Position numbers and translations under genes: made by a program
Source: Trichodelitschia bisporula
Taxonomy: Eukaryota
Direction of reading: 5' to 3'
Assembly (NCBI GenBank): GCA_010356995.1
Contig: ML996693.1
Coordinates: forward strand, 930,001 to 994,000
DNA: 64,000 nucleotides
Part shown: piece by piece, positions 9,842-50,400 of the stretch
Numbering within the stretch: the stretch's first letter is position 1
Layout of the letters: every line of letters begins with the position of its first letter
The notes under the pieces: generated by a model
What the model saw: the letters and a program-made list of their open reading frames with translations, nothing else
What the model was told of the DNA's origin: nothing
The model's database searches: none

Positions 9842-9913
9842 NNNNNNNNNNNNNNNNNNNNNNNNNNNNNNNNNNNNNNNNNNNNNNNNNNNNNNNAGAA
9901 CTCAATTGCAGAG

Positions 9914-22578: not shown

Positions 22579-23464
22579 AGAGACCACCTAATGTAAGACG
22601 GTTTTGAACAGCCCGCCTCAGTGTGACATTTGAACGTTCCCATTCTGAGCAAGGTCACGACTGCCACCGCACCAATTGTCCTGACTCCTGCTTGTTCATC
22701 AGCGCTTTCCACCTATTCACCAGAATCCCACACCCGTTAGGAAAGGTGTGAAGGCCCTTTCCCTTCGCCCTTCCATATGCTCACCATCCAGACGGACATT
22801 CTGTCGAGAGACAGGCTGCATGTCCATGTTGATACAGCGCTTGCACTGTCCAAGACGCTCGTAGCCTTCAAAGCCATAGCAGCAAAAGTTTCCGCCACCG
22901 TCTAGGAAGTCGGTTCAAAAGCACCTTGTACGGAGTGGGAGAAGCCCGGCGGGCAGAGCTCGCTGAAGTGGACAGATGCGCGCACAAATGGAGTTATTTT
23001 TATTGTTATGCGGTTCTATACCATCAAGCAGCTGAATGGCGCAGCGGAAGCGCGCCGGGCTCATAACCCGGAGGACGGTGGATCGAAACCACTTTCAGCT
23101 AATATTTTTTGTCTTTTCAGTGGAGCATTTCTTTTGGCGGTGGATTAAGGTTAGGGAAGGGCGTCATCGTTCGGGCAGGCGGAACAGGCAACTTTGGCCC
23201 TCTCATCATCCATGCGGATTGCAGCTGCAGCCTGGGTCTGTTTCAAAAGCCGAATACAAGTTGCCTTCTCCTCTGAACCGTCAAATTCTTTTACGAATCC
23301 CATGTCATGATCCATCCCATCAGACATCGTGCAATCCCACAACCCGCGCCGCAAGCCAGCCTTGCACCGCCACCCGCCAAGAATATTCCGGCGCCCGCTG
23401 CTCCGCAAATTCGTGGAAAGTGCATCTCACATGACTGCGCACAGACCACCCCACCGCCTGAGGG

Positions 23465-23511: not shown

Positions 23512-23640
23512 ATCCAAGTGCTCGGGCTTTACGCGTGGCAGTGAAGATTCGTCTGAGCCCGTGTTATTGCTAGTTGAAAACTACATTCCTGACCACTCCA
23601 GTTGGTCTTCGGATCGGCTGGGAATTTTTGAACCTCAATC
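23512..23640 (+). ncRNA. U4: U4 spliceosomal snRNA
   Basis: ATCCAAGTGCTCGGG 5' end; k-turn stem-loop CAGTGAAGATTCGTCTGAG; conserved TTATTGCTAGTTGAAAACT; UUCG hairpin CCAGTTGGTC-TTCG-GATCGGCTGG; Sm site AATTTTTG at 23623-23630. 3' end approximate. Confidence 0.93.
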
Positions 23641-24346
23641 TGTTTATCTTTGTTTTCCTCGTCGGTGCTTTCGCCTGGTTGCGGGAGGTTGAAGAGGATT
23701 TTGCTTCGTGTGTGTGGAGAGGGGTGATGGCTCTTGCGGGCCATGACAGGAACAAATTTGTCACGCCCGGACGATGATGCCATCTCGTTTCCGTGGCCCT
23801 CTTCACGTTCCGAGAGTAATGCTGCGTTTAATTGACTTGTCCGACTGTGCTCGGTGTCGAGGCGGGTCTCATGACGCAGTTACATCTCCATGTACCTTAT
23901 TTACTATGAGGGTCGCTTGAAGGAAGGCACGTCGTTGATGAGGTGCAAGAGTGCTGCTAGCGAGCAAGTCGTGAATGCTTGATTGATAACGGACTGATGG
24001 GGCATTGCGTTCGGACTGTTGGAGGAAGCAGTGCCTTGCAGCCCTTTGCATGTGTTCACAGTTCTCCAGCAAGTATCATGTATCACTCCATGCGTCAAGT
24101 GAACCTGAATCACAATCTGAATGCTTTTGCTGTTGCGCCTAAACCCCCGTGAAAGCCGCCCAGCTCTGGTATCCCGTACAAACGCCTGCCTAGCCAGACG
24201 ATCGATGCCTCCCAGTATACACGCTGTGCCATCAGCTTCGCTCGCGCTTCTGCACATACCGACGCGACATACAAAAGTAGCCACTCTCGCAGTAGCCCAT
24301 GCATTCATTCCATTCTGCCTAGTTCTTTCGTATCGCGGCCGGTGTC

Positions 24347-36816: not shown

Positions 36817-38641
36817 ATGGCTCGCATTGGGAGGAAGAGGGCGTACAATTGGTGAGTGTGTGGTAGCCGTCTCTCGCGATGTCTGTCTGGTGTAAGCTGG
36901 CGAAGCATACTAACACCAACAGGTACTGCTCCCTCATCGCCGCCTCCTGCATGGTCCTCTACGGCTACGACAACAGCACCTTCAACGCCATCAGTGGGTC
37001 CGCAAACTGGGACCGGTGGTTCGACAACATCGTGGGCCCCCCCCTTCCCCTTCCCCATCCACCCTCCCCCAACACCCTAACACGCCCAGAAAACCAAAAA
37101 ATCCAACGAAAACCTCTACGCCGCCATCAACACCGCCTACTACGTCGGCGCCATCACCGCCGGCTGGTTCATGGGCGGCCCCATAGCCGACATCCTGGGC
37201 CGGCGGGCGGGCATGGCGAGCGGCGCGGCGTGCGTGATTGCGGCGACGTTTATGCAGGCGTTTGCGCCGAGGGGGATGATTGGGGTTTTTATTGGGGGGC
37301 GGGTGTTGATTGGGATAGGGCAGGGGCTTGCGCTGAGTAGGTTGAGCTTTACGTTGGGGTGGTGAGAGGGAGTACGAGGCGAGGCTGACGAAACAGCGGC
37401 CGGACCGGCGTACATCAATGAGCTTGCGCCGCCGGAGATACGCGGTGAGATCATGAGTTACTGGCAGATGTTTTACAGCGTCGGGAGCTTCATTGCCTAC
37501 TGGGTGGGTTCCGGCATCGGGGATCATAGTTTCGAGAGCCCCGGCTAATGATCCAGGTCGGATACGGGTGCTCGACGCACAAGGCCAAGCTGGGCGAGTG
37601 GGACTGGCGCATGATCGTCATCTTCCAGCTCCTCGTCCCCATCCTCATCCTCAGCCTCGTGTTCACGCTCCCGGAGACGCCGCGGTGGTACATCCAGCAC
37701 GGGGACCGGATCGACGACGCGCGGGCCTCGCTGCTGCGCGTACGGGACGACCCAGAGGCCGTGGAGACGGAGCTCACGAGCATCCGCGAGGCGATTGAGT
37801 TTGAAAAGTCGGCGATTAGCGGGAGTTACAGCGCGCTGTGGAAGGACCCGTCCGTACGGAAACGCTTACTCATTGCCTTTGCGCTGAACGCCGGGCAGCA
37901 GATTACGGGCCAGGGCACGCTGAACACGTACAGCACGATAGTGTACCAGCGCGTGTTCAAGGACGCGAACACCATTTTCCTAATCAATGCGCTGAACGCG
38001 ACGTGCGCGATCCTGTTCACACTCAATGCGACGTGGACGGTGGATCGGTACGGGCGGAAGTTTTTGTTCCTCGTGGGTGCGGTGGGGATGGGGTTTTGCA
38101 TGATTATCGTCGCGACGATTTATACCCAGACGCCGATTGTGCCGGGGAGCAGGTCGGCGAAGGTCCCGGATGGGATCAAGACGCGGCCCGTGGGGATAGC
38201 GATTGTGTTCGTGTTTTTCCTGTTCAGCTTCTTCTGNNNNNNNNNNNNNNNNNNNNNNNNNNNNNNNTAACAGGACCAGACAAACCCTCCTGGGGCGCAA
38301 CAACCTGGATCTGGACCTCCGAAATCTTCAGCATGAACGTGCGGGCGCAAGCCGTGGGCATGGCATCGCAGACGCAAAACATCGCCAACGTGGTAGTCCA
38401 GCAATTCTTCCCCACGTTCCTGAACCGCAAGGGCTTTTACGCCTTCTACATGTTCGCGGGGATTAACTTCCTCCTTGCGGTTTTTGTGTGGTTCGTTGTG
38501 CCGGAGACGCGGAATGTCCCGCTGGAGGAGATTGATGTCCTGTTTGGGGGGGTTAACCATGTTGAGCGCGGAGAGCATATTATTGCGAAGGGGGAGGAGA
38601 GTATTGCGCCAAAGGGGGAGAGTGTGCAGAGGAGCGGGTAG
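36817..38641 (+). CDS. MFS sugar porter family transporter
   Basis: LYGYD, DILGRR, YINELAPPEIRG, PETPRW, QQITG, DRYGRK, SEIFSMNVRA, VPETRNVPLEEID; several introns and an N gap. Confidence 0.93.
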
Positions 38642-39541: not shown

Positions 39542-41962
39542 TCACCCCCTCTGCCCCGCATTAATATTCAACCAACTCATGTCCTCATTCCCGGTCGTCT
39601 TGCGAATCACCGGCCCGCTCCTTACACTGCTGCTCCGCCGCTTCGTCTCCACCACCTTCGGCTTACCCCCAAATCCGGGCGACGTCGGCGAGGGCACTCC
39701 GCGGGGGAACAGCGTAACATCACTCCTCCCACTGTCACGCACCTGCTGCTGGCCGCCCCACGGCGGCCGCGGCGGCTGGAACTCCATCGCAGGTGGTGCC
39801 CGCCGTGCCGCCAACTTGGGCGACTGCTCGATACCGGACGGAAACACGGTGACGTTGCTAGCCCCGCTATCGCGGACGGGAGCACCTGCGAACGGCGCCC
39901 TAGGCGGCGGCGGTGGGTACAGCGCCTCATGGCTACGCAAGCGATCCGTCGGCGCGCCGAAATACGGATTCCCGCCGCCCGAGCGTCGGTCCGCAATAAC
40001 GCCGCCGTCGAGCGGAGTCCAAGATCGGGTCTCAGTGCGGCCCATTTCTCCATTGCTGCCGCGCGAGGACACGCTCTCGGCCCGCCGGATCTCGGCTCGC
40101 AGACCCTCGCGTACGTCGTCAGTGCTGTTGCCCATAGTCGGGCTGCCGGTGGCGACGCGGTTGATGCGCTGTCCCTCGAACTTAGGGCCCAGATTGAGCT
40201 CTAGCGGCGGTGGACCGACGAGCCCGGTCACACTGACGCCTGGTCCCTCGCCGTAGTCCGAGCGTGACATATCCGAGGCGAATGTTTCGCGGGTGGCGCC
40301 GGGCGCGGGAATGCTGGCTAGGTTTGTCACCTCGTTGTTGGCGAAGTAGCGACTCCAACCGTTCGAGCGGGTGCGTGTGGCTGCTTCCAGGGACTTGGAA
40401 GGGCTGGACTCCGGGCTGGAGTCGGCGCTGCGTGGGCCGGTTTCCTTGTTCCGCGGTGGTGACGTCGTGGTTATGACGGGAGCCGCAAACCGCGGCTTCT
40501 CGTCACGCAGATGGCCCATTTCGACCGGTTCATTGTAACCCAACGGGCTCTTGTGCTTGACCAGACCGGCCATGGAGGCATCGCTCGGCATGCCGCGCCG
40601 GTGGGATTTGGCGCCAGGCTGGAACATGGCGAGCGATGTCATGCTTGAGTTTTTGCTTGGAGCAGCACCAAACCCGCGACCCATCGATCCGCCGGCTTCG
40701 TGCATGAACTCAGCACCCTGGTCGGCGAAAGAGAGACGATCTTCCTTTTCGCTGACGGCGCGCTGTTGCTTCTTCTTCTTCTCGCGCATGCAGCGCAGAA
40801 GCAGCAAGATAATGATTAGTATCGCAGCTATTCCAAAGATGGCACCTAAGGTGGCGCCAAGGACAGTAAGCGTCCGTGCTTTGGAAGGACCGGGTCCGTC
40901 ATTTGGCGTAGCGACAGCCGTGCTGGAGGGTGATGCGGTTGCGGATGATAGTGATGATGACGAAGACTTTGTGAGAGGCACCTGTGCCTTTCCGACGAAC
41001 AGACTGGTGGCGTTGATCCATCTGTTCTCCGTCTGGTCGAAGATGACAATCGGATCGTCGTCATTCCCACCACCCGTCATAACAACCAGACCATCCGGCG
41101 ACTGGGCGAGAGAATATCTTGACCGCGCTGCCGTAGGGGCCAACGATGCGTTATATGCCGGCCAATCGCTGACCGTAAGGTCGCGCTTCGACTTGTCTGC
41201 AGCACCGACAACCTTGCCCACCGGTGCAGGCTGGCCATTTTCCCACAACGCGTAGCGGGTAACGACGTTTGGGGACACGCCGAGGTCGAAGAGCTCCAGC
41301 ACTTTACTGCCGTCGTCGCCTGTCACCATGGCACATTTTACCGAGTCGGGTGATACGACAGGTGCCGGCAATGTTGTCCCGAGATTCGTCCACGCACCGT
41401 TGCCGTAGACCCACAGCTCGCGGTTACCCTGCGCACCGCCAACCATGAGAGCATGTGTCGAATTCCAAGGCATAAGCATCGGTTCAAAAAGCGGTGGCGC
41501 GGCGGACGGCGACGCATTGACGACGTATGGTGAGACTGTCGAAATCAAAAAGGTCTGCGACGACGGCAGCACGTCCCCTGCCTGCGACCCAGCGTACACC
41601 AGAATCTGGGACGTGCCTTCCAAAAACACGGCGCCGTGATGTTGGCGGTTACTCGTCACCTGCGAGGCGGGCTGAAGGGTTTCCCAGGCTTGGGTGGCGA
41701 AGACAAAACGTTGAAGACCGCTGTACAGCGCGTTATCCGCGTTAGGTGTGCCGCCGACGACATACAACGCTGCAGTGGCCGGGTTAGTATCTTCGACGCA
41801 AACAGCGCCCTTGACGGAGACGCCGCCGTCGAGCTCCGACCAGTCCGCATCCTCTTTGAGCGGCAGTGCCTGCAGGCCTTCGGGAGTGTAGACGTAGAGG
41901 GTGTTGTCGTGGACGGCAGAGCAGTGGTCGGATAGAGGAAGAGGGGGCGAAGGAATGGACAT
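39542..41962 (-). CDS. Kelch/galactose-oxidase-like beta-propeller protein with one TM helix and a disordered tail
   Basis: Intronless 806-aa ORF; blade-like motifs (LYVVGG, ILVYAGS, ALMVGG, VVMTGG), S/T stalk, TM LTVLGATLGAIFGIAAILIIILLLL followed by a basic stop-transfer stretch. Confidence 0.85.
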   Translation of the reverse strand: MSIPSPPLPLSDHCSAVHDNTLYVYTPEGLQALPLKEDADWSELDGGVSVKGAVCVEDTNPATAALYVVGGTPNADNALYSGLQRFVFATQAWETLQPASQVTSNRQHHGAVFLEGTSQILVYAGSQAGDVLPSSQTFLISTVSPYVVNASPSAAPPLFEPMLMPWNSTHALMVGGAQGNRELWVYGNGAWTNLGTTLPAPVVSPDSVKCAMVTGDDGSKVLELFDLGVSPNVVTRYALWENGQPAPVGKVVGAADKSKRDLTVSDWPAYNASLAPTAARSRYSLAQSPDGLVVMTGGGNDDDPIVIFDQTENRWINATSLFVGKAQVPLTKSSSSSLSSATASPSSTAVATPNDGPGPSKARTLTVLGATLGAIFGIAAILIIILLLLRCMREKKKKQQRAVSEKEDRLSFADQGAEFMHEAGGSMGRGFGAAPSKNSSMTSLAMFQPGAKSHRRGMPSDASMAGLVKHKSPLGYNEPVEMGHLRDEKPRFAAPVITTTSPPRNKETGPRSADSSPESSPSKSLEAATRTRSNGWSRYFANNEVTNLASIPAPGATRETFASDMSRSDYGEGPGVSVTGLVGPPPLELNLGPKFEGQRINRVATGSPTMGNSTDDVREGLRAEIRRAESVSSRGSNGEMGRTETRSWTPLDGGVIADRRSGGGNPYFGAPTDRLRSHEALYPPPPPRAPFAGAPVRDSGASNVTVFPSGIEQSPKLAARRAPPAMEFQPPRPPWGGQQQVRDSGRSDVTLFPRGVPSPTSPGFGGKPKVVETKRRSSSVRSGPVIRKTTGNEDMSWLNINAGQRG

Positions 41963-43379
41963 TTTGGGGTGGGGCCCCGGTGTAGTTCTCTTCGCTGCAA
42001 GAGGTTTATGATCGCGTATACATGGTTTGTGTGGTGGTGATACGGCGGCGACGGAAAGAAGAGGCGTGGTGACGGAGGTGCACTGAGGACCAGCCGTTAT
42101 TTTTCGTGGGGGAAGCCCAACAAAGAAAGTGTGTCTTCTCCTCCTCTTGCTTCAAAGCCCTTGTTGTCTGGGCGGCGAATGGAACGTCTTGAGTCGACGA
42201 GACGGAAGCGGCGCTCTGTCAAAGAGCCGATCTTGATATGGGGGTCGAAGCAGCGACCAGCAGGCTTGATGGTGCAAAGAGGGAATGAACGAGAAGTGTA
42301 TATTCGTACAAGGGAAGCGGAGCGCGCAGCGATTGTCAGGAGCTAGCCAGAGTTGCGAGAAGAACGAAGGGTTTCGCGATTGGGAGGCGTATTCGTCTCT
42401 CGCGGAAGAAAAGGGATGGTGGTATCCGGATTCGAAGTCGAATTCGAGATTTCAAGGAGGCCTAGCTCGGGTGGGTTTGGTATGGACGATATATCGTGAG
42501 TAGCGATATGGCAAGGACGAAAGGGCTGTCGAGAAATGGAAGTGAACAGCTTTCCGCGAACACAAGCAGGATCGGGATGTGAGGCTTGAAGGAGGTGAGG
42601 TGGAGAGATGAGAGAGCGGAGAGAGCGGAGAGCGCGGAGAGAGAGAGAGGGAAGGAGCAACACACTGGACTGGAGGATCACAGCCAACTACCGCTCTAGG
42701 ACTAGCCAGGAGACCCTTTGTATCGAATAGGGGTGTCCCTTAACGGGTGGCTAAGGCTTATTATGGCTTAGTTCCGGGCGTACCTGCCGTGAACTAGCCG
42801 CAATAGTGGGGGGCTCCGACTCGCGATAGGCTGAGTCTCTCCTCCTCACCACCGGCACGGATTTTCCACTGCGGCTTCGCTCGAGAAGTTTATATCGCTG
42901 CATCAACTCATGAATAGCCAGGATGGAGTACGGATTATAAGTACCAATTGTATACGGACTCGTCATCAGCTCAACCCTCTTGCTCCTTCTGAATGTCATC
43001 CATTCCCCTTGTTCCCTTCTAGCACCGAACAGCAGTCCGCGATGGGACCCAGGACTCACGCCATCGACCAGTGAGGTGCCGTACGCTGGTAATGACGGGG
43101 GGAGGGAAGGCTGGTGGCGCGGCCTTCTCGGCCACGGATTGGACGAGGCTGGGGGCGGAGAGAGGGGGTCGAGTTGACCGGGGCCTTGACTTGCACCACA
43201 GGAGCACCGATATCGAGCAGCGAAGGGAATTCAGGTCGCGATGCTGCAAAGCTAATTCATGATTCGCCTTTGCCTTCTAATTCTTCCCTACTGCAAGTCC
43301 TGACTATCAACCATCATGTGTGTGCGCGAAAGAAAAGCGCACTCATCTCCCTCATCTCACAGCCACCCCCTCTCCAGCG

Positions 43380-44035
43380 TACCCCCTAAAACACCGGCGC
43401 CGCCCGCTGTCCCGCCCAAAAAATCCCCGAGCCACAAACACAAAACAGCCTCTGGCCAGCTTCCACCGCGGGCTCCAAAAGGGGGGCAGGGGGGAATGGG
43501 CCCACGGGCTGGTCGAAAAAGTTATGTCGGCCTCCCTCAGCAAAATACCGTGGATTGGGGGGGCATGACTTTTTCGACTAGCCCAAGGCCTAAGGCCCGA
43601 TTCTCCCTTACTGCGTACCGTACGCGCGACTCCGCCGCCGCCGCTCCGCTGCGCAAGGGAAGTAGCCAGGTTCTCGAAACGCACCGCCGCCGCCATGGCA
43701 CACCCGCAGCCCGGCCGCTGCGAGCGCCGTAGTGGGGGGCCGACGGTGGGTGCGGCAAAAGGCTGTGTGGTACCTGCGGGCTGGCCGTGTGGTCGGCGGG
43801 ACGGGGGGTGGTTAGGGGGGCAACCGGGAAAAAGGCATGGGCGGTTGCGACGGGAACCTGAGGCGATCGTGAGTCGCTGGCCGATATCAAGAAACGCGGC
43901 CGCCGCGCGATATTGACCGTGTCTTCTGTTTGACTTCTTTCTCGGTTTCTCTCTCTTGCGCAATTGCAGCCTTTGTTTGTGGCCTTGAGATATCGAATCG
44001 TTGCGTGATGGGAAGGCTGCTCATTTCCGCAAGCG
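43380..44035 (+). ncRNA. Candidate structured ncRNA, block A
   Basis: 23-bp uninterrupted helix 43506-43528/43562-43584 (3 G-U) with flanking helices; second arm 43667-43689/43840-43860; no credible ORF. Confidence 0.45.
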
Positions 44036-44399
44036 CCTGTTGCGTACTCGCACTCGACGTATCACACAGCGACTGCATCACTGCCCACAAGCACAACGGG
44101 CATCCAATCGTCGGGCACATATAAGAATCGCGCTGCAATATCACACCCAACTCGTCATAGATCCCGTGCACCCACCAATTCCCATCCCCAGAAAGCAAGC
44201 CTTACACACACACTCATTGCGATCATCGTCCATCGCCGTCGCGCATCAAACCCACCGCCACGCAAAAAGCCAAGCCGTCGCACCTTCCCTGCCATCAGCA
44301 CCTCAAGTCAGGCACCCACCACCGCCATCCCCAGTCCTCCACTTCAAAAGTCTAAAAACACCATGGCCCTGCTGCAGTAGACACTCCATTTTAATCCTT

Positions 44400-45245
44400 C
44401 AATCCCGTCCATATCCCTCCCGCCCCGACTCACATCCCAGCTTCAGCCCTGCCACTCCCTCACGGTTCCGGTCCCCAGTTCTCAAGCGGCCAGGGAACCA
44501 CGGATCGAGCCCGCCCGCCTGCGGACCCACCGCGTCCGTTGCGGTTCCCAGCGGTTGAGACGTTGGTGCACCCGCGTAGGGAGGCCGTGGAACGAGCGGG
44601 ACCAAACACCGACGTCGTGCTGCCGTCGTGGGATCCGCAATGGGAAGCTTCCGCTGCAAAGTTGATACTTAATATCCCCACTTCCCTCCCATCCAGCCCA
44701 CTCCCGCAGTGAGTACGATTCCGCGCCCGTCCGCAAAGCAACGGATTGGCGATGCTCGCGGGCGGGCTGATTGCTTGACGTCGCGCGAACCTCATTCTTT
44801 CTCCATATTCCTTCCCGCACTGTTACGAGCAGCCAAGAAGCCCGAGCCCCACCTTCCCCACTGCACTTTCCGCCGTCGCATGTGGTCTGAAGTGGCTGCC
44901 GTTGCGTGCGCTGGTTTCACGGTACGGTACGGCGGTCTCACGGGCCACACCGGCGCGAGAGCGGAGAACCGTTGCGTAAGGCTCCCGGACGCAGCTCCGC
45001 TTTACATCAGTGCGTGGCAATATCGTGATGAGGGGGGGATGATCGGCATGCTCGTTGTCGTTCTAGTAACTCCACGACCAAGAATATGCGTAAGTTCACG
45101 GCCAAGAGTGCTCGTTGTTTTCCCCTCAAAGCTTGTTGTTGCGTTTGCGTGATGGGAACCGCCTGGGCGGTTGGCGTGGGACTGTAATCTCCGCTGTTTT
45201 GGGCCCTGGGCTTCGGGATGAGGTAAGGAAGGAGGATGGAACGGT
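44400..45245 (+). ncRNA. Candidate structured ncRNA, block B
   Basis: Nested helices in 44480-44560; 11-bp 44508-44518/44758-44768; end-to-end pairing (CATCCC 44433 / GGGATG 45215); upstream ATATAAG near 44119. Confidence 0.3.
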
Positions 45246-45861
45246 GAGTGCGTTTGTGGAGGATGAAGAGAGAAGCGTTTCTGTCTGGCGGCTGCTTGAC
45301 GTTTGATGATTGAGAGTTTGATTGTTTGACAGAGGGCATGTCTGTGTCGTCGCGGTGACGGCTCCGGAATAGGCTCGGCTGTCTCGCTCCTGTTGCTCCC
45401 GCATAGGTTGGCGGATGGCCAGTTCTTTCACATGTTCAAACATGCTGTTTTGCTTGCATGAACGTCGATGATATCATGTCCCAGACACCGTTTTAGCCTT
45501 CAAGGTCTGACGTCGTTCTGACGTCTCTCTGCCATAACTATATCCACGGCCTGAAGAATGGCCTGCGCCAATTCTAGACGGCATAAAGGCCGGGGATAGA
45601 CAGCACGGTGTAGGTCGAGATCCATCTCTGTTCGACATGTAGGAAGCAAGTCCGAGTGGTAATCTGTTAAGCCTTTAAGGTCAGCCTCTACCCCTCCCTT
45701 CACGACGATAGGGCTCTAGCTTGTGGGAATTCAGTATCGTGAGTTTGTCGAAGCCTAGGGTGACTTGTCTCAGTACTGAATATCAATATCTCGGCCCGCT
45801 TCATCACCACGCTCCATCGTGATACTCCTCTCAGTCACCGATCTCCCGATACCACGTGCAT

Positions 45862-45876
45862 TAACCCTAACCCTAA
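45862..45876. repeat. Interstitial telomeric repeat TAACCCTAACCCTAA
   Basis: 2.5 copies of CCCTAA. Confidence 0.8.
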
Positions 45877-46344
45877 TCCCCCTTTCGAGCTCCCCCACGG
45901 TTCCTTCCAGTCTTGCCATCGGTCATTTCCCTAGGTAAGTACGTTCCTTCCAGAAACACCAATGATCCTTCCTCAGTTCACATCAACTGTTCAACTCCAG
46001 GCTTTATAACGTGCATCGTCCCTACAAAATCACAACTCAAGTAAGCTACACCATATGTCGGCACGAGTTCTATACAACTAAAAGAGGTACATAGCATCAT
46101 AAACCAGAGCGCGTGCAAGAACACCACAAGGCTCGAAGCAAGCCTTGCCGGGGCCGATCATCGCTTAGGCAGAAGCTCAGACCGAGAGCCACCCTCACAT
46201 GTCACAGCCGTCCCACCCACAAATCCGCCTCAGCGAGACGGCCACGACTTTCCCACGCAGCCGTTAGCCCCCCGGCCCGACCCCGCGCGCATTTCGCCAC
46301 TCGAATATTTAATCCCCCCCCCCCTCCCCCACACTTCGCATCAC

Positions 46345-47036
46345 CAGTTCTCCGCGCCCGCGCTTGCTTTTGTCTTCCGTACGTCTTCCTTCGCACATCC
46401 GGCACCGCTGCGCTCTCTCTCTAACCGCTGTAGTTTTCGGGCCCGTACGGAGTGCGGCTTTGAGGAGATGGCGGTGGTGAAGTGCGCGAGGATGGGTTGA
46501 GGTGTGTTGCCTGGCCCGGCTGCGGTGTGGACGGGAACTCACAGTTCGGTGAAGCAGGCCGCTCGCTGCGCTTCGCTGTGTTTCGGGCGATGGCCTCGAC
46601 GGATGTGGATGCCGATGCAGCCAGCGGTACACGACTGATGGCCGACCCCGCATCTGCGGCCAGGGTTCGCGGCGGCAAAAGCAAGCAGCCGACGGGCTGG
46701 ACCGCTTGACTGCGCGTTCCAGAACGTCGACATTGAACACCGCCCGCTTGATGTCCGGTCGGCGTCGCGAATACGTCCATGTTCAGTGCGCAGGGCAAGT
46801 CGGCGGGATGGGTTGAGGTCCCTCTGCGAAAGCGGCCGGGAGGGCCAAGGGCCATCCAAAAAAAGTGTAACCGTCCTTTCCGGGCCTATGCTGTGTGGTA
46901 CGCACATGCTATGGGCAGGGGACGGCCATGGATTTTTGGGTGGCTCTTGGGGGGCTTGTGGATGGAGCGGGGACATAAAGCGGGCTTCTTGTGGGCCGCG
47001 AAGGAAGATAAAAGTATGCGCGTGTGCGGAGAGCTG
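46345..47036 (+). ncRNA. Candidate spliced rod-like structured ncRNA, block C
   Basis: Terminal helix 46345-46378/47003-47036 (32 of 34 paired, no gaps); intron 46379-46433 (GTACGT...CTAAC...TAG); 18-bp helix 46845-46862/46933-46950. Confidence 0.6.
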
Positions 47037-47411
47037 ATTACCGGAACGGAGTGGAGGAGATAGCAAGAAATGGACGTGAAATACATGGTGATGAGGCTGA
47101 CCTTCGAGGTTCGCTAGACGAGTGACTGCTTGACATGTCTTCGTCTGAGACAGCGAGTGGATCGTTGGAGTGGTGAGGCTGGGCCTGGGGGGTCCAATAG
47201 TGGTTTTTGATAGAGGGAGTTTGTTGGGACTCTTCGATGATCGGTGAAGCGATGGGAGGGCGTGCTCTCATATCTTATTCAACACATCCTCACTGCTCAA
47301 GTTGCTACTATTGGTGACAGTCATGGCCATCCTACATTAAGATTACTGCCTTGCATGATGTACATGTGCCCACATCGTCGATGTGACCCGTTACCCGCGC
47401 CAGCCCCCCTA

Positions 47412-50400
47412 TCACCGCGGCTCCCCAAACACAATCTGCACCACCTCATCCAACAACGAGAATACCAGATGCGAACTATCCTCATTAGCATCTTACCCAC
47501 ATGAAACCCAAAGGAGGGAAAACTCACTTCAACCGCCGGTTATTAACCAACGCAACCACCCTCCTCGCCGCAGCTTGCCCATTCCCCCTCCCCACCACAC
47601 TCCCCACAAGCTCCGGCACCAGCGCGACAAGTACCACCGCAGCCTCCTGCTTCGTACGTGCCTTCTCCGCCGCTGTCCGCGGCGTCTTCTCCACCTTCAC
47701 TCCGTCTTTCTTCTCGCCCGCCACCAAGCCGGCAATCATGTCCAAGAGCTTTGCAATCCCCTCCTCACACAGCACACTCCGTGCCCCTTCACGCACTTTG
47801 CGCTCCACCGTCCCGCCTAACAGTTTCTGCAACACCATGACGACGGCCCGCCCCCGCAGCCAATTGTTTGAGCGATTCAGCTCAAACGCTTCAAGGAAAA
47901 GATCACATATCGGCTTCACAAACGGCTCCAGCTCGCGTGCCGCATCCAGAGCCCTAAGCTCAGCTTCCGCCTCCGCCTCCGCCGTCAGAACCTTAGTATC
48001 CAACGGCGCCCCCGCCGCCCCGCTCCCTTGGGGGCCAGCAGCAAGCTGCGTCGTCGCAACAGAGATCAGATTCTGCCCCGCCAGACTCAACTGATCCAGC
48101 ACAGGAATATTCCCCAAAAAGTCTTCCATCCCATCCGTCACACTATTATATATCCTGGTGACAAAATCGCGCTCCTCGACGCGGGCACCCACGCCCGCCC
48201 CCGCGGCGCTGGGCACGGCTTGTTGGCTGAGGAAGGCCCGGACGTCGCGGCTCCGGCATAATGCGGGTTCTTTGAGTAATTCGCGGAGGTAGCCTTCGAG
48301 GGCTGTGCGGCGCTTGGCCATGACGTCTTTTTGGAGACCGAGCCCGATTTGCCTTCGCGGGAAATCGAGATTCCGGACGAGGGGGAAGAGGGTTCGCAGG
48401 CGCTTGTGCAGGGCGTGGAATTCGGAGTAGCGCCGCGCGACGGCCCAGGTTGCGGCGGGGATGTGGGAGCTGGCGGTGCGGTGGACTTCGATTACGTCTG
48501 CGGGGTGTTAGGGGGAAGNNNNNNNNNNNNNNNNNNNNNNNNNNNNNNGGACGTACATAGTGCGAATTCCTTGCCGTCTTCCTCTTTACCGACTGTGATG
48601 GCGGGGATGGAGATGGTGGCCCGGCCGTATAGGCTGTTATCGCTCTCCTGCACAATGTACTGCTGGCGCTGCAACTCCTTGCGATTAATCTCGCGCTGCA
48701 AGCTCGCCTTGCTCTTCCTCAATATGCGTAGCTCAGCCGCATTATTCGTCAACTCCGCTTTTCGCGTCAAGGAATCCACAATCCTTTCCTGCGTCACCAG
48801 TTTCTCGATATCGAGGGTGAGCGCATCGATCGCCTCCGCGAGACCCAGGTCCCCAGGCGCCGCCTCGTGGATGTCATCCTCGGAGGCGCCGCCCGGCTCG
48901 GCGTCTGAATCCTCCCTCTCGTCTTCGAGAAATTTTTCTTCTTCGCCGAATAGGTCGTCTTTGAACACCACGCTTCGCCCTGGTGCGCCGACTAGGCCTA
49001 GGGATGCGATGCTGGGTTTCTCACGTGAGCGCGAGGACCCCGTCGCCCCTTGGGCTGGGGATCCGATTCGGGGGGGCAGCTCGAGGGAAGACCGCATGGA
49101 ATCGGGCTCGATGGGACTGAACAAAGCGTCGCGGTCTGGGGCTTGGTGCATTATGTCTGTGAGTGCGGCTTGCATTGCGTCGACGACGTGCGGGTCGTTA
49201 CCCTGCGGAGCAGGCACAGGAACACCACCATCACCATCCGAGTCCAGACTCGCGGTACTCCGCGCAAGCGGCTCATCCACATCATCGTCAAACAGCGGCG
49301 CGCGGCCATTATCCAGACTGCGCCGCGGGGGCTCGTCGCTCTTCACGAAGGCTTTGAGGTCCGACGAGGAGAGCGCGGAGCGCCTCAGGTCCGTCGGTTT
49401 CTTGAGCAGGTCCGTGGCGGCGCGGGGGGGTAGGGCGGGCTTATGCATGCGCGGCGGCGGTTCTGGGTCTGAGGCGGGAAGATCAGGGGAGGGGGCTGAT
49501 TCCTCGGATGCCAGGAGCTTGAACCATTGGGTTGTGTGCTTGAAGGTTTCGAAGTGCGGGTCGCGCATTTCTTCGTATGCGGCGGTTTGGGCGCGGAGGA
49601 CGGATTTGCGCGCCGCTTGGTACTGCGCGTTCGTGGCGCGGCTGCCGGCGCGCAGGAAGGTGCGCACTGCTTCACGGGCTAGGGGGGAGATTTTGATTTC
49701 CGGTTGCGAGAGGTAGGCTTCGTTGATCTGGGCTATGTCGGCGCGGTCTTGTTCCGTCCACATCGGGGTGGTGGGGAAGTCGGCGGATTCGGATTCGTCG
49801 GCGTCGTCTTCGAGGGGGTTGCGGAAGCCGTCGACTACGATCCAGAATTGCACGAGCCGCATTAGGTGCTGTCGGTCCATATAGTCCATGAAGCAGGAGA
49901 GCCCGGAGGCTGTGTAGAGGACTTCTCTGAGGGTTGCGTTTTCGAGCTTCGAGGCGCGGCGGGGGCCGGAGGGGGGGGCTCGCTTTGCTGGAGCTCCGCC
50001 TGCGCCGAGTTGGGATATGCGCTGGTCGAGGATGCGTTTTGCGGCCTCTAGCCTTCGTAGGAAGAGCGGGTCTTGTCCCTCGACGGCGGACTCCTTGCGC
50101 AGCTGGGCGGCGACTTCGGAGCGGAAGCGCCGCGCGTCGGAGAGGTTGTTGCAGGCGCGGATCGAGCGGATGAAGCGTTCGAACTTGCGCTCATTGTCCT
50201 GCGGCGTGAGCTTCGGAAAGGGGGCCGGGCGGATAGACCGCGGCGACGAGGGCGCATGCTCATCGAGCGCAGCGCGCAGCTTCCGGACCGTCTTGCGTTC
50301 CTGCAAGAGACTCTTGCCATAGGTAACAATGAGCTGATTCCAAGTATCCGGATCCGACAGCGTCTGTATAAGCGGGAACAGCACCGCACAACTCACAATC

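Follow-up and report, generated by a model that had tools for sequence, protein, structure and literature searches.

A spliced, apparently non-coding transcript with a predicted helix-closed domain beside a sorting-nexin gene of Trichodelitschia bisporula

The locus and the sequence data

We analysed a stretch of 64,000 nt of Trichodelitschia bisporula DNA (contig ML996693.1, positions 930,001 to 994,000 of the forward strand), hereafter the window, to which all coordinates refer. Between a kelch-repeat gene and a sorting-nexin gene, an interval of ~5.2 kb (42152-47411) holds no credible open reading frame (ORF) and is covered from 43207 on by contigs that resemble complementary DNA. In this interval lies a + strand transcript of at least six exons, apparently non-coding and of RNA polymerase II (Pol II) type, which is convergent with the nexin gene. 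Two segments of the interval, 46345-46378 (5' arm) and 47003-47036 (3' arm), can pair into a 34-bp helix, which would close a structured domain of this transcript. An original prediction, made from the letters alone, had pointed to this helix as the end of a rod-like spliced RNA.

Two DNA contig sets, X1 and X2, which are possibly the source of the window itself, were aligned to 41000-48500, and each gave exactly one contig, unbroken at a likeness of at least 90%. Two further sets of the same organism, X3 and X4, come from another sample (one sample of one study) and are labelled 'RNA?'. We treated them as RNA-derived because intron-shaped joints are present in them and absent from the DNA runs. 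The contig data carry no strand, start or end; their depth was not taken as a rank of expression, and the uncovered stretches around 42550-43200 were left uninterpreted.

Splicing and coding potential of the transcript

One long contig in each of X3 and X4 skips six short segments, none of which is skipped in X1 or X2. Five of the resulting joints read GT..AG on the + strand; the sixth, in the nexin gene, is CT..AC (- strand). The long contig extends to 43207 in X3, to 44950 in X4, and at its other end into the nexin gene. For introns 1, 2 and 5 the printed joints were 45677/45772, 45932/45999 and 46499/46553 ('cut +2'), and the coordinates given here include this +2 shift. The features of the locus are as follows.

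39542-42151, - strand: kelch-repeat gene, on one side of the locus
45680-45773, + strand: intron 1, 94 nt, GT..AG, joint in X3 and X4
45774-45934, + strand: exon 2, bounded by introns 1 and 2
45935-46000, + strand: intron 2, 66 nt, GT..AG, joint in X3 and X4
46041-46094, + strand: intron 3, 54 nt, GT..AG, joint in X3 and X4
46095-46378, + strand: exon 4 of the transcript, with a joint at each of its ends in one and the same contig
46306-46312, + strand: TATTTAA, inside exon 4
46379-46433, + strand: intron 4, 55 nt, GTACGT..CTAAC..TAG, skipped exactly by one contig each in X3 and X4
46502-46554, + strand: intron 5, 53 nt, GT..AG, joint in X3 and X4, inside the helix-closed domain
46555-47380, + strand: last exon, with unbroken X3/X4 contig cover over 46553-47475; the 3' end at 47380 is a guess from the UGUA at 47359
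47412-47414, - strand: stop codon of the nexin gene (PXA-RGS-PX-Nexin_C, convergent; spliced translation, Pfam matches), whose 3' untranslated region (UTR) runs toward the locus
47476-47527, - strand: intron of the nexin gene, CT..AC joint in X3/X4, in agreement with the nexin reading frame

The canonical 55-nt intron that the original prediction had described is thus used: its junction 46378/46434 appears as an exact skip in the X3 and X4 contigs and not in X1/X2. The prediction had further taken the helix as terminal, in a 692-nt RNA starting ~35 nt after TATTTAA. This did not hold, since the exon 46095-46378 is joined to three upstream introns; because the exon with the 5' arm begins at 46095, the helix is internal and not the terminus of the RNA. 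The TATTTAA itself is where it had been said to be, but a start ~35 nt after it is not borne out. Lying within exon 4, the motif is not needed as a promoter, and it may mark an alternative start.

The transcript was read as non-coding because its ORFs are short, without a Pfam match and without a homologue. In the transcript spliced from 43207, the longest ATG ORF of the part that bears the helix has 94 aa; further upstream there are ORFs of 138 and 90 aa, and none crosses an exon junction. No match to Pfam at E ≤ 0.1 was given by any of 11 ORFs on both strands. Searched against 1.84 billion representatives, the 94-aa ORF gave no match at E ≤ 1e-10; its four weak multi-stretch matches were to long proteins only. 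We weighed against this an overlooked reading frame in a protein-coding gene made of short exons, since the layout, with exons that are short and five introns of 53-94 nt, resembles that of coding genes. In its main part, no frame of the spliced transcript spans a junction or exceeds 94 aa, and the translations are of low complexity; with the failed Pfam and homologue searches, this makes a coding gene highly improbable. The joints and the ORF results together agree with the spliced, + strand, apparently non-coding Pol II-type transcript that had been proposed.

Two repeats were seen in the exons. An exact 14-nt direct repeat, GGATGGGTTGAGGT, occurs at 46490-46503 and 46806-46819, the first copy spanning the 5' splice site of intron 5, and a longer version of it has a third copy (81%) at 43792-43812. 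In exon 2 the 33-nt stretch 45887-45919 alone is matched by one further contig in X3 and in X4, with unrelated sequence on both sides, and seems to be shared with another transcript.

The 34-bp long-range helix

The two arms of the helix are:

46345-46378, + strand: 5' arm, the last 34 nt of exon 4 (pair counts and joint)
47003-47036, + strand: 3' arm, which we place in the last exon (pair counts)

The arms pair without gaps through 28 Watson-Crick and 4 G-U pairs, with 2 mismatches (C-U at 46358/47023 and U-U at 46364/47017) and no A-C, the counts being those of the original prediction. At the DNA level, the best local inverted alignment within 45600-47500 consists of exactly the two arms and scores 38, where 200 shuffles of the same region gave a mean of 22.4 (standard deviation, sd, 2.4) and a maximum of 32; the inverted homology stops at 34 bp. 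At the RNA level, the best duplex of the 5' arm with 46434-47400 has an energy of -56.4 kcal/mol, a value reached by none of 500 shuffled arms against the same G-rich target (mean -37.5, sd 2.75, best -47.9). Natural sequences of similar composition did not equal the arm either: among 117 C-rich 34-mers of the upstream exons the best value was -49.3. The 34-bp helix is therefore far beyond chance, against shuffled as well as natural sequences. In the minimum-energy folds of four constructs of 1.3-2.1 kb, 32 of the 34 pairs are retained. The mean pair probability of the helix is 0.88-0.94 in three of the four contexts and 0.019 in the 2.1-kb unspliced one, where the value may be numerical or may reflect a real alternative ensemble.

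Three other long-range pairings were tried as candidates (45794-45818/46961-46985, 45672-45688/47093-47109 and 45793-45809/47086-47102) and rejected. Their energies are within the range of the natural C-rich 34-mers, the minimum-energy fold contains none of them, and one crosses a 5' splice site.

With at most 3 mismatches, the arm consensus has four matches in the window. Two are the arms, and one of the remaining two is at chance energy. A third, partial copy of the arm motif lies at 44953-44971 (3 mismatches, orientation of the 3' arm), where there is a break in the X4 contigs (44950/44974). As a pairing partner of the 5' arm this copy was rejected, its energy being -31.6 versus a null of -33.7 ± 2.9, that is at chance level.

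We infer that the 3' arm is part of the + transcript, and that both arms are in one + molecule, because intron 5 proves + transcription into the G-rich half of the locus and because there is no - strand joint below 47475. The lncRNA (long non-coding RNA) probably overlaps the 3' end of the sorting-nexin gene. This assignment has a rival in two convergent transcripts, in which the 5' arm would belong to the + lncRNA and the supposed 3' arm to a - strand RNA (the nexin 3' UTR or another). Both RNAs would then share a 34-nt pyrimidine-rich motif, perhaps protein-binding or initiator-like, and would form intermolecular duplexes where they overlap. The composition suits such a view, the + strand being C-rich over 45800-46400 and G-rich (hence C-rich on the - strand) over 46400-47300; so do the nexin stop at 47412, whose UTR is directed into the locus, and the strand of 46555-47475, which is unassignable from contigs. 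The + intron 46502-46554, however, carries + transcription into the G-rich half, no CT..AC joint is found between 46555 and 47475, a nexin 3' UTR would need ~400 nt or more to reach 47003, and both the inner hairpin and the colinear extension described below fit an intramolecular fold. We consider the pair of convergent transcripts quite unlikely.

The inner hairpin and the strand of the fold

Inside the domain we found a second element that folds exceptionally well:

46845-46950, + strand: 106-nt hairpin made of an 18-bp helix (46845-46862/46933-46950) and nested stems, 44 pairs of which 7 are G-U

This is the inner helix with nested stems of the original prediction, and it is in the minimum-energy fold. 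The hairpin has an energy of -60.9 kcal/mol and a z-score of -5.66, with none of 200 shuffles as good, and its minimum-energy structure makes up 21% of the ensemble.

The comparison with dinucleotide shuffles that had been proposed as a check gave, for the + strand of 46345-47036, a z-score of -5.7 unspliced and -5.9 spliced (100 shuffles each); in a run with 20 shuffles it was -7.3. The structure signal is carried by two elements only, the 34-bp helix and the 106-nt hairpin. Outside the arms, the apparent outward continuation of the rod is compositional, because the 5' half is C-rich and the 3' half G-rich.

As to the strand, all four transition-type deviations of the helix are G-U on the + strand, and those of the hairpin are 7 G-U versus 2 A-C. 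This excess of G-U favours an RNA of the + strand, which is also the strand that is spliced.

Splicing and the length of the rod

According to the minimum-energy fold, the removal of intron 4 brings a further stretch of pairing next to the helix:

46434-46462, + strand: start of exon 5, 5' strand of the rod extension, colinear pairing with 46976-47002 once spliced
46976-47002, + strand: 3' strand of the rod extension (minimum-energy fold)

In the spliced fold the rod stretches from 46345/47036 to 46462/46976 and has 56 pairs, including 9 G-U; splicing lengthens the rod in the prediction, as had been claimed. The other half of that claim concerned the precursor. The intron 4 segment GTCTTCCTTCGC (46383-46394, 12 nt) is indeed complementary to 46998-47009, with one G-U. 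Since the 5' arm ends exactly at the 5' splice site and this competitor lies in the intron, the full duplex of ~56 pairs would, on the speculative reading given below, be available only in the spliced RNA.

The gain was measured on two-strand constructs, in which the arms with the start of exon 5 gave -87.8 and the arms with the start of the intron gave -80.3. For 541 other 38-nt windows the values were -80.1 ± 4.5; the intron value is at this null mean, and the exon 5 value is matched by 5.7% of the windows and 1.3% of the shuffles. The effect thus goes in the direction of the original prediction, with little statistical weight, and the claim of a fold that depends on splicing is weak, as the 34-bp helix is found in both forms.

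A natural intron-spliced hairpin RNA, in which splicing would license the transcript as a substrate of Dicer or of a protein binding double-stranded RNA (dsRNA), is on this evidence unlikely. We know of no description of such a quality-control or timing gate by splicing for fungal small-RNA precursors, although no dedicated literature search was made.

Copies, families and relatives

Two sensitive Rfam scans of the locus gave only chance-level matches (E 2.4-9.8, with E ≤ 10 as the limit), and a scan of the whole window at gathering score gave nothing at the locus. These results agree with the original prediction, in which no family had been recognised. A host of small nucleolar RNAs (snoRNAs) was considered as a candidate and rejected: the introns are of 53-94 nt, no C/D boxes were seen by eye, and there was no Rfam snoRNA match above chance.

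As relatives we considered 80 metagenome loci with nexin homologues of 53-62% amino-acid identity. Within the relatives compared the locus is, as far as seen, lineage-specific.

The original prediction had named a miniature inverted-repeat transposable element (MITE) as its alternative, to be recognised by many dispersed copies with target-site duplications. Neither was seen: there are no near copies of the arms or of the hairpin elsewhere in the 64-kb window, and no target-site duplication of 2-9 bp flanks the unit (GCATCAC on one side and ATTACCG on the other; CGCATCAC and ATTACCGG). With a single unbroken contig at ≥90% in each DNA run besides, the locus is not a recent repeat.

An old insertion is the main rival of a functional RNA structure. 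The arms would be what is left, after decay, of the terminal inverted repeats of an old insertion (foldback or MITE-like) or of a small inverted duplication, which would merely happen to lie in a transcribed non-coding region, and the RNA helix would be a by-product without selected function. In favour of such a relic are a discrete inverted repeat with sharp ends and homology confined to 34 bp, arms spaced to give a 692-bp unit of MITE-like size, and arms starting with CAGT/CAGC; many cut-and-paste transposon ends start in this way. The good folding of the - strand and the lack of conservation in the relatives also go in this direction. On the other side, the duplication of the target site is missing, no further copy is found at ≥90% in the DNA contig sets and none in the window, and the interior is G+C-rich with two working introns. 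Moreover, all four transitions preserve pairing on the + strand, and the weak continuation of the pairing across the splice junction is not predicted by a DNA-level repeat. We regard a relic as possible but rather unlikely.

The telomere-like motif

Exon 2 contains a motif of another kind:

45862-45878, + strand: TAACCCTAACCCTAATC, equal to 2.5 repeats of telomere type, within exon 2 of the lncRNA

Because of the telomere-like 15-mer TAACCCTAACCCTAA (45862-45876) in this exon, the transcript was tested as a telomerase RNA, with TAACCCTAACCCTAA as the template and the helix-closed domain as one of the long arms that the ~2-kb telomerase RNAs of filamentous ascomycetes typically have. The motif is perfect over 2.5 repeats and stands in an exon of a structured, ORF-free transcript of ~2 kb. 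It is also rare: the 12-mer CCCTAACCCTAA and the 8-mer AACCCTAA have their sole occurrence in the window there, and a 9-mer form is found in one of the 80 relatives' loci (~900 kb in total), 7.1 kb off and on the strand opposite to the synteny expectation.

What defines the P6/P6.1 region is a compact three-way junction in which P6.1 has 4 bp and a NUNGN loop of 5 nt and is separated from P6 by an A. A three-way junction can be folded at 47099-47195, with a hairpin whose NUNGN loop has 5 nt (47153-47165), the single A47150 before it and U5 (47205-47209) after it, and there is a second NUNGN hairpin with a UUGGG loop at 46943-46955. Within 47099-47215 the outer helix 47099-47115/47177-47194 surrounds the hairpins 47116-47149 and 47151-47167 (GUGGA loop), and GGTTTTTGA follows.

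Against a telomerase RNA, the region 47040-47170, and with it the junction, folds at chance level (z -0.76), and the 6 NUNGN hairpins counted in 1.8 kb are roughly what chance would give. Over the few nt just upstream of the motif no template boundary helix was seen by eye, and inspection by eye only, with no formal pseudoknot search, gave no convincing boundary helix or pseudoknot with U-A.U triples. The motif is not beside the nexin gene in the relatives. Rfam, in which an ascomycete telomerase model is present, listed no telomerase family at E ≤ 10 in the two scans of the locus and none at gathering score, though the sensitivity could be reduced by the introns that interrupt the gene.

The published accounts, in the portions available, give further points of comparison. 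In all known filamentous-fungal telomerase RNAs the spliceosome produces the 3' end by cleaving at a 5' splice site that is non-canonical (AUAAGU or AUACGU) and stands beside a U-rich site (PMC3603654, PMC4299874, PMC4993307). At the present locus ATAAGT is absent from 43000-48000, and the single ATACGT (46771, by eye) has no preceding U-rich site. Telomerase templates are described as spanning 1.5-2 repeats, 'no more than two' (PMC3603654, PMC4993307), versus 2.5 here, and the available portions of the cited accounts do not mention internal introns, of which this transcript has five, all spliced. In length the transcript is comparable, the telomerase RNA of Neurospora crassa having 2049 nt and those of Aspergillus about 1.9-2.1 kb (PMC3592445, PMC3603654).

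In sum of likenesses, the transcript shares with the telomerase RNAs of filamentous ascomycetes a length of ~2 kb, the lack of an ORF, the Pol II type, a high degree of structure and a CCCUAA-type motif in the 5' part; it differs in its spliced introns, in the length of the motif, in the missing AUAAGU site and Rfam match, and in the lack of a convincing P6/P6.1 junction, pseudoknot or boundary helix at the locus. A telomerase RNA is very unlikely. The motif may otherwise be a telomere-repeat-type protein-binding box or an interstitial telomeric insertion.

Interpretation and comparison with known systems

We consider as the best overall reading, with a probability of about 0.5, a lineage-specific spliced lncRNA with a helix-closed domain, possibly a target of ribonuclease III (RNase III) or of a dsRNA-binding protein. 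In the mature RNA, a near-perfect 34-bp duplex between the end of exon 4 and a stretch of the last exon would close a domain of ~580 nt. Before splicing, the 12-nt intron segment could act as a rival partner for the first part of the 3' arm; once intron 4 is removed, exon 5 would adjoin the duplex, which could grow to about 56 pairs. The domain would contain the 106-nt hairpin of 44 pairs as its second exceptional element. Both helices, whose formation in vivo we infer from the modelled folds, would be dsRNA elements read by a Dicer-like enzyme of the RNase III type or by some other protein that binds dsRNA, and the transcript would be a precursor of the hairpin-RNA or microRNA-like RNA (milRNA) type, or a protein scaffold. 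A real structured lncRNA domain at the RNA level is, on the evidence above, rather probable; the Dicer-substrate step is tentative, and we hold it doubtful.

Several results weigh against this reading. The RNA evidence is thin, as it consists of contigs from two runs of one sample of one study labelled 'RNA?'. The contigs are strandless, and the cover at 47003-47036 may be the + transcript or just the nexin 3' UTR. The strand signal of the fold is weak as well, because the - strand folds well too (z -4.9 for 46345-47036, with 20 shuffles, and -4.3 for the hairpin), and the stretch is G+T-rich, so that a mutation bias could yield the same excess of G-U. Away from the two elements, three other inner pieces have z-scores of -0.2, -0.3 and -0.8, and the outer flanks 46095-46344 versus 47037-47300 gave z -0.78, with no gain of interaction above separately shuffled sides. 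The extension that depends on splicing is only marginally above chance (p about 0.01-0.06). From the relatives there is no support: none of the 80 loci has DNA similarity to 42500-47412 (all five blastn matches are the nexin coding exon), the kelch neighbour is found in 0 of the 80, and, no relative being alignable, there is no support from covariation. Finally, a DNA-level relic, too, would be expected to look like a sharp-ended inverted repeat of 34 bp.

The helix-closed lncRNA can be compared with three known systems. Fungal milRNA and hairpin-RNA precursors, known from the milRNA work in Neurospora, are non-coding Pol II transcripts of filamentous fungi with hairpins that Dicer processes. 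Like them, the present transcript is non-coding and has long, nearly perfect stems (the 106-nt hairpin, and the duplex of 34-56 bp, whose length would suffice for RNase III-type enzymes); unlike them, its outer duplex closes a loop of ~470 nt and not a short one, and one strand of the duplex ends at an exon junction. The 64-kb window gave no target.

The second system comprises the engineered intron-spliced hairpin RNA (ihpRNA) constructs used for silencing, and the natural hairpin-RNA loci of plants and flies, which give endogenous small interfering RNAs. The likeness is in the intron, which lies at the inner end of one inverted-repeat arm, so that the spliced RNA would have a longer and tidier duplex. 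In contrast with ihpRNA, the arms here measure just 34 bp, or 56 pairs if the bulged extension is counted, they are separated by exon sequence of ~470 nt and not by an intron alone, and the locus is natural and single-copy.

With MITEs and foldback transposons, the locus has in common two inverted repeats of ~34 bp (28 of 34 positions complementary at the DNA level), ~620 bp apart and with sharp ends. It differs from them in the missing target-site duplication, in having no other detected copies, in its G+C-rich interior and in its functional introns.

Structured lncRNAs of filamentous fungi are almost uncharacterised, and few combine confirmed splice junctions with a defined long-range helix that is statistically solid. 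Should the RNA interference machinery read the helices, the locus would offer a tractable spliced hairpin precursor in which splicing completes the dsRNA; otherwise it would be a lineage-specific lncRNA with a decayed inverted repeat.

Neighbouring genes and minor observations

The window, which is from a filamentous ascomycete, also encodes a Het-C protein (Pfam, E 3e-174). The introns of the window are of 50-95 nt with the signals GTACGT/GTAAGT and CTAAC, and the G+C content of the window is 51-63% in bins of 2 kb. The ORF-free interval 42152-47411 is unusually long for a genome of ~30 Mb. Three short runs of N are present, at 9842-9896, 38237-38267 and 48519-48548, the third within the nexin coding region. 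A tRNA-Met gene (CAT anticodon, 23030-23101) and a gene for the U4 spliceosomal small nuclear RNA (23512-23646, 102.8 bits) lie 410 bp apart, both on the + strand.

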